Below, in pieces: positions 717 through 63,416 of a stretch of DNA of 64,000 nt. The stretch covers positions 60,636,001 to 60,700,000 of the forward strand of contig OX597818.1 in the NCBI GenBank assembly GCA_951406725.2, read 5' to 3'. Below the pieces are notes generated by a model, which saw only the letters and a program-made list of their open reading frames with translations, had not been told where the DNA came from and made no database searches. Origin of the DNA: Octopus vulgaris. Its lineage: Eukaryota. Positions within the stretch are counted from its first letter, which is position 1; each line of letters opens with the position of its first letter. Both the position numbers and the translations under genes were made by a program.

Positions 717-764
717 GTCTCCGATGAAGGGATATATAACATATCCCAGAAACAGCTGTAAGAC
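717..764 (+). ncRNA. Type I hammerhead ribozyme motif, U4C core variant
   Basis: GTCT-CCGATGA-A-GGGATAT/ATAAC/ATATCCC-A-GAA-ACAGCTGT-A-AGAC: stem I GTCT/AGAC, 7-bp stem II, palindromic stem III, GUA triplet. Confidence 0.7.
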
Positions 765-825
765 CTATTTATAAATGTTCTAAAATCTTCACAGCCTTGG
801 TTTTTTATCTCATTCTAAAAAAAAT

Positions 826-900
826 GTATATATATATATATATATATATATATATATATATATATATATATATACATATAGATATCTATATATATATATT
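826..900. repeat. (TA)n microsatellite
   Basis: Directly visible. Confidence 0.95.
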
Positions 901-1060
901 TATACTTTATTTTAAGCAGCAGAAAAAAGATATATTACTCTACCACTGGTATTTGAGTACTCTTTTTTCCACCTTGTTTCACATTTATGTGTTTACTCCG
1001 GTATATATATTTATATACATATATATTGGAAGGTTTGGAGATGATGTACAGGTATTTTAT

Positions 1061-1200
1061 ATTAGAAGAAATGAGGTACTCAGAAAATCGGATGGTTTAT
1101 ATTTACAGATATTTATTTGTATATTACATTTTTTATACATCGTATAACTTAGATCATGTATTAGCACTTTCTCCCATTCTAGTGGGGGTTTTCAAATCAA
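1061..1200 (-). mobile_element. PLE-type non-autonomous element 3' end with a degenerate HHR
   Basis: 1061-1118 is nearly identical to 48799-48857. Minus strand TTGAAAA-CCCCCACTAGAATGGGA-GAAA-GTGC-TA is a decayed copy of the 48890-48922 motif. Confidence 0.55.
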
Positions 1201-1322
1201 ACTAAGTTCCTGTGTGAAAAGTTTTGACAATTTTATAGTGGTATTGAGTTTGTAGTAGTGGGGAGGAATACAAGACAGTACAAGAGGGTGATTGATGAGG
1301 AGAAAGTGAGAGAGAGAGAGCA

Positions 1323-1402
1323 TGTGTGTGTGTGTGTGTGTGTGTGTGTGTGTGTGTGTGTGTGTGTGTGTGTGTGTGTGTGTGTGTGTGTGCGTGTGTG
1401 TG
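1323..1402. repeat. (GT)n microsatellite
   Basis: Directly visible. Confidence 0.95.
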
Positions 1403-2088
1403 TTTTTGTATTTGGAATGAGTGCTAAAGAAAAAGAGGGGAAGAGGGAGGGAAGAAGAAGAAAAGAATTGTTTTTGCTCTGCTGGACAGCATGCTTACTC
1501 CAAGGGCGTCTAGGATCTTGGGGAAAAAGAATTTCAGTTTTGACCATTTCATAGTGTTATTGAGTGTGTGTTGGCGGGGAGGTAGGCCATAAATTATATT
1601 TCTTTTTATCATTGTGAGAGAGTGTGTGTGTGTTTAATGGGGGATGGTCAAATGGTTTTTTGGGTTAGAGAAGAAGAATTCTTTTTATGATTGTTTTGTG
1701 GATGTGTGTTTGTGTGTGTGTGTGTGTGTGTGTGTCTGTGTTTGTGTGTGTGTGCGTGTGTGTGTGGGTGTCAGTGAGTTTGGTGAAGGGAAGAAAGGAG
1801 AAGAGGGGAAAAAAGGGAGAAAGGAAAAATAATTGTGTTGATATTTATACCACTATATATATATACATACATATATATAAAACATCAGAAAAAACCACCT
1901 TTCATCAATTCAAAATGAATAATTGAATTACACCATCTAGAAAATTACCTATAGAAAAGTTAAAATTAAAATGACAATTAAAAAGTAAAGATTAAGTAAA
2001 TTACAAAAATAATATAATGTACATAATAGGTAATATATATATATATATATATATATATATATATATATATATATATATATATATATAT

Positions 2089-2295
2089 AGGTTAATCCAA
2101 ACGAGAAAACAGAAAAAACAACAACACAAGGAGGTGGAACAATTAAAGTATTATTATTGGGCGCTCAGGAAAAAGGGAAGAAGGAGGGTATGACGTTTCG
2201 AGCGGAGCTCTTCGTCGGAAACATAAGAGAAAGAAAGATCCCGAGGCGGGCGAACGGAGGGAAAAAAAACGCGACTGGTTTTCACGAAGTAAACA
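2089..2295 (-). mobile_element. Short (TA)n-associated HHR-bearing element; other copies at 19516-19590 and 60450-60670
   Basis: Shared 3' tail ...AATACTTTAATTGTTCCAC...TTGGATTAAC running into (TA)n in all three copies. Confidence 0.7.
2188..2222 (-). ncRNA. Minimal type I hammerhead motif (CCGACGA core variant)
   Basis: Minus strand GTTT-CCGACGA-A-GAGC/TCC/GCTC-GAA-ACGT-C-ATAC. The second copy at 60571-60605 has a perfect stem I GTTT/AAAC. Confidence 0.65.
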
Positions 2296-2302
2296 TATAT
2301 AT

Positions 2303-60075: not shown

Positions 60076-60570
60076 TTCATGACTATGATCCAATTATGCT
60101 TAATCTCCGTCTTGTTTGTTGACTTTAACCGTCCTCCAGTTCAATACCATCTCCTGGCACCTTAAGAGCCTCTGGCGGAGTCTACGCAGTTGCAAGCACT
60201 CGGACCTCGTCTCCGGTTTGAGGATATTTTCTCCCTGTAGGTCTCTGAGGCCCTGTAAGGCTCTCCTGATTAAATTATGGAAAACCCATTCAAAGGCACG
60301 GGTATGACTGTGTGGTAAGAAGCTTGCTTCTCAGTACAGTGGTTCCGGGTTCAGTCTTACTGCATTGCACCTTGGGTAAATGTCTTCACTGTAGGCTCGA
60401 GCTGACGCTGACCAAAGCCTTGGCAGACGGAAACTATATATATATATATAAAGTTAATCCAAACAAGAAAACACAGAAAAAAAGAAACAGAAAACAGAAA
60501 AAAACACAGCAACGCGAGGACGTGGAACAATTAAAGTATTATTTGACGCTCAGGAAAGAAGGGAAGGAGG

Positions 60571-60605
60571 GTTTAACGTTTCGAGCGGAGCTCTTCGTCG
60601 GAAAC
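60571..60605 (-). ncRNA. Minimal type I hammerhead motif (CCGACGA variant)
   Basis: Minus strand GTTT-CCGACGA-A-GAGC/TCC/GCTC-GAA-ACGT-T-AAAC. Confidence 0.65.
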
Positions 60606-60803
60606 AAGGAGAAGGAAATATCCCGAGAAGGGAAGACAGAGGAAAAAAATATTTTTGCTGGTGGTGCTCATCAGAGACACACACACACACACATATATAT
60701 ATATATATATATATATATATATATATATATATGGTGAGGTGGGGTGGGGGGGGTGTAATTTTTTTAAATGTGTAGAAAATAAACAAACGAGGCACTGAAC
60801 ATT

Positions 60804-60935
60804 CCCTGATGAAAGCTGGATGGTATATCAGCCGAAACGTTGTATTAACAACAAACAAGATGAGGACAAAAAATCCGTCAAAATGTAAATAATGTAAATA
60901 ATGTACGTAATTCCTCATCTCTTAAATATAGCACT
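60804..60935 (+). mobile_element. 5'-truncated HHR-bearing tail of the 30241-30518 family
   Basis: CTGATGAAAGCTGGATGGTATATCAGCCGAAACGTTG...TCATCTCTTAAATATAGCACT. Confidence 0.7.
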
Positions 60936-61316
60936 GTACTCTGGTATAAGTGTTGGTAAGACTACGGCGCTACATGTTGTACTTGCGTGTGAACTTATAG
61001 ACATGCACTGAAGACAAAGAATTCCAGTTAATGACTTTTAAAAGATTATGTCTTGGAGGGGAGAGCGAATGTACGAATGAATACATTTGACTGTTTGACC
61101 TGTTAATTTGGAAAAAATCATTGTTTCTAGTAAATCTACAACGCCAAAGTATGACTTCTTGGTAACAAGAAAACAGTAATACGAAACATGATCCTTTCAT
61201 GTCGTGAAAGTCAAATCATCATCATCATCATCATCATCATCATCATAACCACCATCACAACCACTCTCTTCCACCTTTTCATCATCATCATTGTCGTCGT
61301 CGCCGTCGTCATCATT

Positions 61317-61780
61317 ACCTATTTCTTTACTACCCACAAGGGGCTAAACACAGAGAGGACAAACAAGGACAGACAAACGGATTAAGTCAATTATATCGAC
61401 CCTAGTGCGTAACCCCGAAAGGGTGAAAGGCAAAGTCGACCTCGGCGGAATTAGAACTCAGAAAGTAACGACAGACGAAATACTGCTAAGCATTTCGCCC
61501 GGCGTGCTAACGTTTCTGCCAGCTCGCTGCCTTCAAAAATAAAGTACCTATTTCTTTACTACCCACAAGGGGCTAAACACAGAGCGGACAAACAAGAACA
61601 GACAAACGGATTAAGTCGATTATATCGACCCCAGTGCGTAACTGGTACTTATTTAATCGACCCCGAAAGGATGAAAGGCAAAGTCGACCTCGGCGGAATT
61701 TGAACTCAGAACGTAGCGGCAGACGAAGTACCGCTAAGTATTTCGGTCGGCGTGCTAACGATTCTGCCAGCTCACTGCCT
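61317..61780 (-). mobile_element. Two tandem SINE family B copies
   Basis: Family alignment. Confidence 0.85.
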
Positions 61781-62117
61781 TATCGCTGTCGTCGTCATCA
61801 TTACCATCATCATCATCAACAACAACGACCACAATAACATTACAGCCCCGAGTTCCAGGACTCGTTGGACCGGCTACTTGATTTGCATGGCGCAAAAATG
61901 CCTGAGTTCTCCCAACACCGGTACTGAACGCGTTGCCAGAGTGTCGTGAGATTATTTATTTACAGCTGAGGGGACTGGATAAAACGTGAACTTAAATGTT
62001 TTTGCTCAAAAAACCTAACGCATCACCCGGTCAGGGAGAATAGATAACCACGATGTTGTACCACATCCGAAGCACCAGGCCACATACCTTCAAAAGTCAA
62101 ATATAAGAATATTTGAA

Positions 62118-62690
62118 AGCGGCGAGCTGGCAGAAACGTTAGCACGCCGGGCGAAATGCTTGGCGGTATTTCGTATGCCGTTACGTTCTGAGTTCAAATT
62201 CCGCCGAGGTTGACTTTGCCTTTCATCCTTTAGGGGTCGATTAAATAAATACCAGTTACGCACTGGGGTCGATGTAATCGACTTAATCCGTTTGTCAGTC
62301 CTTGTTTGTCCCCTCTGTGTTTAGCCCCTTGTGGGTAGTAAACAAATAGGTATTTCGTCTGCCGCTACGTTCTGAGTTCAAATTCCACCGGGGTCGACTT
62401 TGTCTTTCATTCTTTCGGAGTCGATAAGTTAAATGCCAGTTTCGTACTAGGGTCAATCTAATCGACTGTTCCCCTCCCCAAAAGTTCAGGCCTTCTGCCT
62501 ACAGTAGAAAAGACTATTTAGTATTTCGTCTGTCTTTACGTTCTGAGTTCAAATTCCGTGGAGGTTGACTTTGCCTTTCATCCTTTCGGGGTCGATAAAT
62601 TAAGTACCAGTTGACTACTGGGGTCGATTTAATCGACTGTCTCCCTCCCCCAAAAATTTAAGTCTCTAGACATGTTATATAAAAGGAAAA
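62118..62690 (+). mobile_element. SINE family B trimer
   Basis: Restarts at GTATTTCGTCTG. Confidence 0.8.
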
Positions 62691-63214
62691 GAGAATACGA
62701 ACACTTAAGTCGCGACTCAAATCAAGATACGTAATGAATTCTGTGACGTATTTATTACGTCACACGATTCAAGTGATCCTACCATGTCACAGAAATTCTT
62801 ACTGGTTGCATATAAAGCAGGCAGTGTCCCATCAAGTGAGGAGGGGGTAACGTTTTTCAGAAGGATGTGATCAATTAGAACAAGGATTTCTCAGCCAAGG
62901 GGACACAACCCAAGATTTAGAAACCAGAGTAAAATTCACAAGAATCATGAGATCTTTTATCTCTTACTTGTTTCAGTCATTAAACTGTGGCCATGAAATC
63001 GACAACGGGATTCTTTTTTTCTTTTTTAAGGTCGGCAATTAAGACATGTACGGGTTTGTTTACATCCCCATAATTTAGCGTTTAGGTAAAGGAGATCAAT
63101 AAAATAAGTGCTAATATGTATACATAGATATACATACATACACACACACACACACACACACACAATATATATATATATATATATATATATATATATATAT
63201 ATATATATATATAT

Positions 63215-63416
63215 ATTTATTATATAGAAGGAGTTTCTACAGGACTAGAACTGTTTCATTCAAGAGAAATCTTCAGGAAGCTTCCTGAAGATTTCTCTTG
63301 AATGAAACAGTTCTAGTCCTGTAGAAGCTCCTTCTATATAATAAATTAATTTTACTCTGCTATGTATTGAGTACCTTATTTACTGTGGTTAACCCCGAAT
63401 CAACCCGGGACCTACA
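63215..63416. mobile_element. PLE-type fold-back element: 132-bp palindrome plus 3' tail, (TA)n-flanked
   Basis: 63215-63346 is a palindrome centred on AAG|CTT (63280/63281) with one mismatch. Confidence 0.85.
63279..63329 (+). ncRNA. Canonical type I hammerhead ribozyme (mirror copy on the minus strand at 63232-63282)
   Basis: AGCTTC-CTGAAGA-T-TTC/TCTT/GAA-T-GAA-ACAG/TTCTAGTC/CTGT-A-GAAGCT: 6-bp stem I, true stem-loop III, GUA triplet. Confidence 0.85.

Follow-up and report, generated by a model that had tools for sequence, protein, structure and literature searches.

Hammerhead-bearing repeats in the window

We analysed a 64,000-nucleotide (nt) stretch of the Octopus vulgaris genome (contig OX597818.1, positions 60,636,001 to 60,700,000, forward strand), hereafter the window, which contains short repeats carrying hammerhead ribozyme motifs. 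Sixteen sites listed by an earlier sequence-only reading sort into 11 hammerhead-bearing repeat families, A to K. Each family was searched for throughout the 2.80-Gb assembly (227 contigs), long copies were traced upstream and 25-60 loci were sampled per family; loci elsewhere in the genome carry L numbers. Our results make it highly probable that most of the motifs are hammerheads in the truncated 3' ends of coding Penelope-like elements (PLEs), and that families B, G and I, which are three short non-coding families, likely borrow the reverse transcriptase (RT) and GIY-YIG endonuclease (EN) of PLEs. The features are as follows, with strands in brackets (UTR, untranslated region).

230..834 (+): family A, a 5'-truncated 3' UTR, largely read as that of a coding PLE; hammerhead 717-764 (+) with a U4C core and stem III ACAGCTGT
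1004..1715 (-): family J, a truncated 3' UTR of a Neptune-like PLE, 92% to L506 over 716 nt; hammerhead-like motif at about 1158-1197 (-) with a U3-A8 core and a 2-bp stem I
2079..2267 (-): D-like 3' end with a mismatched stem I and its core at 2218
2303..2883 (-): family B, a non-coding tandem element present here in 1.6 units of 360 nt; hammerhead 2520-2564
3717..3942 (-): family J coding fragment, spanning the C-terminal GIY-YIG and running into the 3' UTR
5579..6015 (+): family C; main arm 5771-6015, inverted arm 5579-5772, hammerhead 5892-5980
8290..8455 (+): family E, apparently the 3' end of a Neptune-like PLE; hammerhead 8328-8363
8543..9050 (+): family F, apparently a truncated 3' UTR; hammerhead 8811-8906 with a long stem II
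11729..12096 (-): family G, part of a tandem with a 534-nt non-coding unit; core at 12072, with damage to stem I in this copy
21736..22831 (-): family H; main arm 21736-22679 (-), the 3' UTR of a Nematis-like PLE with hammerhead 21836-21879; inverted arm 22678-22831
30263..30518 (+): family I; at 30263-30337 a head resembling transfer RNA (tRNA) with A and B boxes, then an (AAT)n linker and hammerhead 30424-30469
32160..32324 (+): E-like copy with a decayed core
35349..36332 (+): remnant of a Neptune-like RT, decayed and duplicated in part (E 6.5e-11 to the L502 frame by tblastn)
48796..48945 (+): head-to-head junction of family J, beside a hammerhead remnant
60442..60681 (-): family D, a truncated 3' UTR of a Neptune-like PLE; hammerhead 60571-60605 (-) with a U4C core and a GUU site
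60805..60938 (+): family I copy truncated at the hammerhead, with the 5' strand of stem I lost
63215..63416 (no single strand): family K, with two arms that meet head to head within stem I; hammerheads at 63285 (+) and 63276 (-), where stem III forms a true hairpin

Motifs were detected with a type I hammerhead descriptor that demanded the core, a stem I of at least 3 pairs, a stem II and a stem III that is either palindromic or a hairpin. In its strict form the descriptor found 6 motifs in the window, compared with 0.15-0.17 in dinucleotide shuffles (100 global and 100 block), and in its relaxed form 10, compared with 0.37-0.51; with either form, 0 of 100 shuffles equalled the observed count. 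Nine of the 16 listed sites pass the relaxed descriptor, and 8814 also passes if stem II is allowed 75 nt, giving 10/16; a relaxed match at 3873 is an unlisted site inside GIY-YIG coding DNA. The six failing sites (1160, 2188, 11998, 32190, 48890 and 60806) are decayed or truncated copies, and their families pass in other copies, J excepted with its unusual core and short stem I. The shuffle check proposed by the sequence-only reading thus bears out its claim that the motifs are real, with fewer than one expected in shuffled sequence. The Rfam hammerhead families, which it had also proposed to search, gave no match in the window at the gathering score and no match for the B unit at E<=5. Weak Rfam matches in the window, among the 150 of 321 listed, were mostly microRNA models on microsatellites and were set aside. 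Run on 2.0 Mb of fetched loci, mostly selected by family, the descriptor gave 230 distinct matches and 0 in each of 3 shuffles. The flanks of these loci hold about 25 additional hammerhead types (for example L502:6807, L507:3423, L360:366, L164:89 and L051:2237), most of them with a 6-12-nt palindromic stem III.

As had been claimed, stem III is palindromic, and thus compatible with dimers, in A to I and J (K has a 4-bp hairpin instead), and stem II is often closed by a mismatch. The claim that stems differ completely between families while pairing is kept stands for stem I, whose arms form a mean of 3.7 pairs within families and 0.7 across them (0 of 100,000 permutations), in a test made conservative by a B arm mis-picked by the script and by the damaged G copy; it falls for stem II, which is common to D and E, and for stem III, which is common to G and H. 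The abutment on (TA)n ascribed to most hosts is partial for C, F and H and does not apply to family I (0/25 loci against a 15% background). The proposed density of about one motif per 4-5 kb does not carry over to the genome either. The core pattern CYGANGA-N12-21-GAAAC matches the genome 98,027 times and its reversed control 22,429 times, an excess of about 75,000, or about one per 37 kb, for a pattern that does not cover the long-stem families; the window, with 8 matches against about 2.2 predicted from the genome mean, is about 3.5-fold richer.

Families linked to coding PLEs

Families H and D represent the 3' UTRs of coding PLEs, truncated at the 5' end; the intact RT/GIY-YIG frames lie elsewhere in the genome, and both families run unbroken into such frames. 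Over 944 nt, the window copy of H has 96% identity with the 3' UTR belonging to a frame with RT and GIY-YIG in L281, and RT and EN frames also accompany H in L360 and L361, where H stands on both sides of the frame as direct pseudo-long terminal repeats (pseudo-LTRs). For D, RT and EN lie 2.6-3.0 kb upstream in L284, L352 and L353, and relatives at 74-81% identity come after coding frames in L354-L359. Families A and J are largely likewise 3' UTRs of coding PLEs: GIY-YIG lies 1.0-1.1 kb upstream in 5/20 long copies of A, and for J the EN ends 618 nt upstream in L425 and L506, with RT and EN together in the relative L535. The J coding fragment at 3717..3942 matches the EN of L425 with 84% protein and 93.6% DNA identity, and positions 3796-3900, which had been taken for a decayed partner, belong to family J itself, as the end of its endonuclease.

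This genome carries many PLE frames of 800-1000 codons that are intact, and the 3' UTRs are long (0.6-3.5 kb). An RT motif, a cysteine linker and, at the C-terminus, GIY-YIG share one frame in L352, L354, L361 and L362, and RT and GIY-YIG do so also in L535; the cysteine linker precedes GIY-YIG in intact frames, as it does in the clades Neptune and Nematis. The names Neptune-like and Nematis-like follow motifs that we take to mark these clades, and not a tree of RTs. On the PLE frames Pfam gave GIY-YIG at E 0.006, below the cut-off, and matched no RT family. Pseudo-LTR tandems and inverted truncated arms were found in PLE copies. The RT remnant that had been placed at 35300-37240 as a partner is indeed a decayed RT (35349..36332), but it is tied to none of the listed hammerhead families. 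For annotation, these data mean that long low-complexity 3' UTRs disguise truncated PLE ends as non-coding families.

On thinner evidence, families C, E, F and K are also tied to coding PLEs. EN was found in 3/20 upstream-anchored loci of C, collinear with the hammerhead-bearing loci. For E, whose core is A6U in most copies, one locus (L465) carries an EN frame followed by a continuous UTR that is partly common to two others, on which grounds E as a closed short element was rejected; one genome search with E was biased by (TA)n in the query. For F, EN lies 997 nt upstream in L511 (1/25 loci), with a UTR common to three other loci, and for K it lies 1.8 kb upstream at one locus with an insertion between, the UTR being common to two loci over at least 1.35 kb and same-strand spacings being 5.2-6.0 kb. 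For A, C, E, F and K the EN alone was observed, and the evidence for an RT frame comes from H, D and J. At L535:1397-4824, a J-type coding element is nested in the TA-rich UTR of a K copy: PLEs of this genome insert into each other.

Family K had at first the look of a fixed fold-back non-autonomous element, as suggested by 40/40 identical copies, but the query had spanned the junction, and an uninformative search with only the 3' part of K gave no match. Exact counts gave 484 junction-type copies (about 240 loci) and 2,544 copies with a non-A base before stem I, and many copies are long; therefore, the K junction is an inversion hot spot and not a fixed element. The hot spot sits in the 5' strand of stem I (window 63275-63286). 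Among 14 sampled variants with G before stem I, 12 are fold-backs joined within a few bases and 2 are truncated exactly there, and in 0/14 does the junction fall at the predicted cleavage site as a genomic trace of cleavage. Joining via a 4-nt palindrome or a splice acceptor at this point are candidate causes; a splice acceptor at the corresponding point is described for a Drosophila virilis element in the accessible text of PMC4209133.

Three short non-coding families

Family B consists of a 360-nt unit that closes on itself and occurs in dispersed multimers, with a GC content of 50% and a longest stop-free frame of 67 codons. An inverted arm is present in 20/25 loci. The 29 array ends cluster in two ranges of the unit, 358-362 (18 ends) and 317-322 (10 ends), with a single end elsewhere. 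All 10 short ends face a long end, and a TA stretch follows directly on 15 of the 18 long ends. Relative to the predicted cleavage site, the arrays end about 180 and about 225 nt downstream and never at the site itself. Units differ by 3.3 sites within arrays and by 8.4 between them, and private variants are common within an array. Relatives of B with other hammerheads keep the same 3' domain (L246, L069, L479, L337, L280 and L261). The consensus fold of this domain from six natural copies has 23 pairs with two-sided change in only 2, giving modest support to a structure. In the largest sequencing run, which is not on record as RNA, the depth of the 3' domain far exceeds that of the hammerhead part, which points to a sister family that is more abundant than B. 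A different repeat at window 45740-46120 (also L222, L448 and L026) holds a copy of the B-type 3' hairpin domain, and its ends resemble those of what we take to be Helitron-like elements.

Family I has A and B boxes of RNA polymerase III (Pol III) at a fixed 5' end, read directly against what we assume to be their consensus, and by reading the tRNA-like head continues into the hammerhead tail in 27/30 head-anchored loci, a figure preferred to the 30/30 of a less trustworthy fuzzy count. ARAGORN calls a tRNA in 1/30 loci and Rfam gives no tRNA match. An inverted match lies nearby in 21/25 loci, and the 33 two-armed insertions among 54 loci (two overlapping) carry the distal tail on one arm in 28 cases, on neither in 5 and on both in 0. 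The point where the inverted arms meet is often the 5' end of the tRNA-like head, which gives a small, fixed hairpin at the junction (window 30263; L472-L500). By reading, 29 of the first 100 listed core-pattern matches are I-type, a share from which genome extrapolation is rough.

In family G the tail runs back into its own start, forming a closed 534-nt unit with a longest stop-free frame of 84 codons. A period of 527-534 was found in 4/25 loci, and one apparent two-ribozyme dimer has a spacing of 533 nt. Inverted arms occur in 10/25 loci and (TA)n ends in 22/25, and these features together with the partial tandems suggest that G is mobilised by PLEs.

Probable mobilisation by PLE enzymes and its alternatives

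In both B and I, arms stand head to head and a 30-45-nt tail is present on one arm only. The one-sided tail and inverted arms at the insertion ends make it likely that B and I are copied by PLE enzymes. According to the available text of PMC8557442, inverted arms, which are truncated, characterise PLE insertions, and a tail of 30-40 bp usually sits at one end. In the accessible account of an anole PLE protein, the protein nicks and extends both strands of AT-rich DNA in vitro and starts at two internal sites bounding the tail; hammerhead cleavage needs the protein, and the hammerhead is dispensable for in vitro insertion (PMC11167929). By analogy, we infer the same PLE chemistry for the coding families, B and I. 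The PLE enzyme would nick both strands of AT-rich or (TA)n DNA, two fixed internal sites separated by 30-45 nt would each start one complementary DNA (cDNA), and both cDNAs would halt early and have their ends joined, yielding short copies enriched for the hammerhead end. Given the two points past the predicted cleavage site at which its arrays end, copying of B would run round an RNA that is circular or multimeric. Palindromic stem III may let the ribozymes cleave as dimers, to judge from the accessible text of PMC4209133, and cleavage may be weak and unneeded for insertion. The link to PLEs, and to minimal, probably dimer-dependent hammerheads, had been drawn by the sequence-only reading and holds up.

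Several observations weigh against this explanation. EN lies upstream in 2/29 loci of B, where it looks incidental, in 0/26 loci of G and in 0/62 loci of I, and no coding partner with a matching 3' end was found for B or G, nor an autonomous partner with a shared 3' end for I; a coding partner sought between two same-strand I motifs 5.5 kb apart was rejected, both being separate short copies. For C, EN and hammerhead occur together in 0/53 loci. The coding links of E, F and K come from one locus each, while PLEs nest in each other's (TA)n. Moreover, the loci of each family were the best-scoring 20-30 of each search, which favours young copies, and non-canonical cores are found in A and D (U4C), E (A6U), D and I (U at the cleavage site) and J (2-bp stem I).

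Among the alternatives, it is unlikely that B, G and I, as non-autonomous elements, owe their spread to other means, with I copied by a long interspersed nuclear element (LINE) enzyme and the B arrays produced by local duplication or unequal crossover, as the accessible text of a preprint suggests for retrozyme arrays (10.64898/2026.07.22.740005). The private variants within B arrays fit local duplication as well as rolling-circle copying, I is without (TA)n targeting, and a PLE partner was not found for the three families. However, the dispersed B arrays on many contigs have the same two end points, each two-armed B insertion has one long and one short end and I is equally asymmetric; this asymmetry counts against crossover and LINE priming since neither predicts it. 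We regard it as improbable that every family, B, G and I among them, is no more than a truncated coding PLE whose long copies went unsampled, even though eight families seemed non-coding before long copies were sought and 25-60 loci were covered per family. The sequence-only reading had named such truncation as the outcome that would remove novelty, and most families are indeed truncated autonomous PLEs; B and G, in contrast, close on themselves at 360 and 534 nt, and I begins at its fixed tRNA-like 5' end with a frequent inverted-arm joint. Finally, the original view that about ten families, or all eleven, are non-coding, non-autonomous ribozyme elements with decayed partners has very little left in its favour: every window copy is short and non-coding, 1-3 kb 3' UTRs conceal frames and the window RT remnant is decayed, but H, D, A and J (and, less firmly, C, E, F and K) continue into RT and/or GIY-YIG frames, and many intact frames exist in the genome; the continuity of H and D and the direct pseudo-LTRs of H refute it for these two, and it is largely refuted for A and J.

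A bolder reading goes further. Family I may be a tRNA-headed hammerhead short interspersed nuclear element (SINE) copied by PLEs rather than LINEs, perhaps in tens of thousands of copies, and B may belong to a retrozyme superfamily that keeps a shared structured 3' domain as a docking and double start site while swapping ribozymes; we see the chances for and against this pair of proposals as evenly balanced. If true, the insertion ends would be the first sequence-level proof of PLEs mobilising retrozymes and SINEs, and a PLE-moved SINE would widen the known SINE partnerships.

Relation to known systems

Hammerheads in PLE ends were published in 2014 (Cervera and De la Pena, PMC4209133). The minimal type I hammerheads in the accessible text of that study share with ours a short stem I, an extra base or mismatch at the base of stem II and a palindromic stem III, as well as the U3-A8 core variant, many families per genome and mostly single truncated copies, whereas several octopus families have 8-nt palindromes and 45-70-nt stem II insertions. 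The excess of about 75,000 from one pattern here compares with 4,000-9,000 in coelacanth and Xenopus (PMC4209133), under descriptors that differ and are not directly comparable. As in the portion available of Craig et al. 2021 (PMC8557442) on Neptune and Nematis PLEs, the coding elements have one frame with RT, cysteine linker and C-terminal GIY-YIG, and show partial tandems, an inverted truncated arm, a one-sided tail and microsatellite targets; the octopus elements differ in their long 3' UTRs, with clade names here given from motifs. In a published octopus repeat annotation, PLEs make up 6.83% of a genome in 190 families, and its main text does not mention ribozymes.

PLEs were proposed as the movers of retrozymes in 2020 (Cervera and De la Pena, PMC7229834), and a 2026 preprint by Li, Clavereau and Pollet (10.64898/2026.07.22.740005), in its accessible text, supports this by co-occurrence, pseudo-LTR similarity and trees in 35 species, no mollusc among them. 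B and G resemble the non-LTR retrozymes of both sources in being short non-coding tandem units with a type I hammerhead. B is a non-LTR retrozyme under the 2026 operational definition only, as its GC content of 50% fails the under-45% trait of 2020. In contrast to the preprint, the two-site tail and inverted arms here are seen in the insertions themselves. Like I, the hammerhead SINE-like elements of Schistosoma, as presented in the available part of a review (PMC6765202), have a Pol III-type promoter and then a hammerhead; those elements are tandem multimers, whereas I is mostly dispersed, in head-to-head pairs with a PLE-type one-sided tail. Chlamys PLEs such as MRC1 (PMC8557442) are likewise PLE-moved non-coding elements with pseudo-LTR and tandem structure. 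However, they share 3' ends with known autonomous families and most are without canonical hammerheads, whereas no such partner was found for B, G and I in the loci sampled; the accessible text mentions no tRNA-like head for them, and I has one.

A literature search, with most subscription journals out of its scope, found no report of octopus families A-K or of a PLE-moved or PLE-type tRNA SINE, and no insertion-end evidence for PLE-moved retrozymes. Taken together, the hidden system as originally stated is mostly ordinary PLE debris, and B and I are worthwhile new variants in it. They offer a testable handle on which enzyme moves animal retrozymes: their two-site one-sided tail is a feature linked in vitro to PLE reverse transcription, and intact candidate enzymes are present in the same genome.

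Other repeats in the window

Ends of D, E and C that lack a hammerhead core lie at window 19516-19594, 22907-23090 and 41630-41791. At 20540-21070 and 24040-24385 lie two copies of an element that is bounded by terminal inverted repeats and contains telomere-like (TAACCC) repeats. The common SINEs of the window resemble what we take to be octopus families. An open frame at 19750-20530 has two zinc-knuckle-like repeats with a 153-nt period and is probably a fragment of a retrotransposon first open reading frame (ORF1). Tandem arrays made of SINE pieces were also observed, with 222-nt units at 10508-11407 and 184-nt units at 53189-53930.

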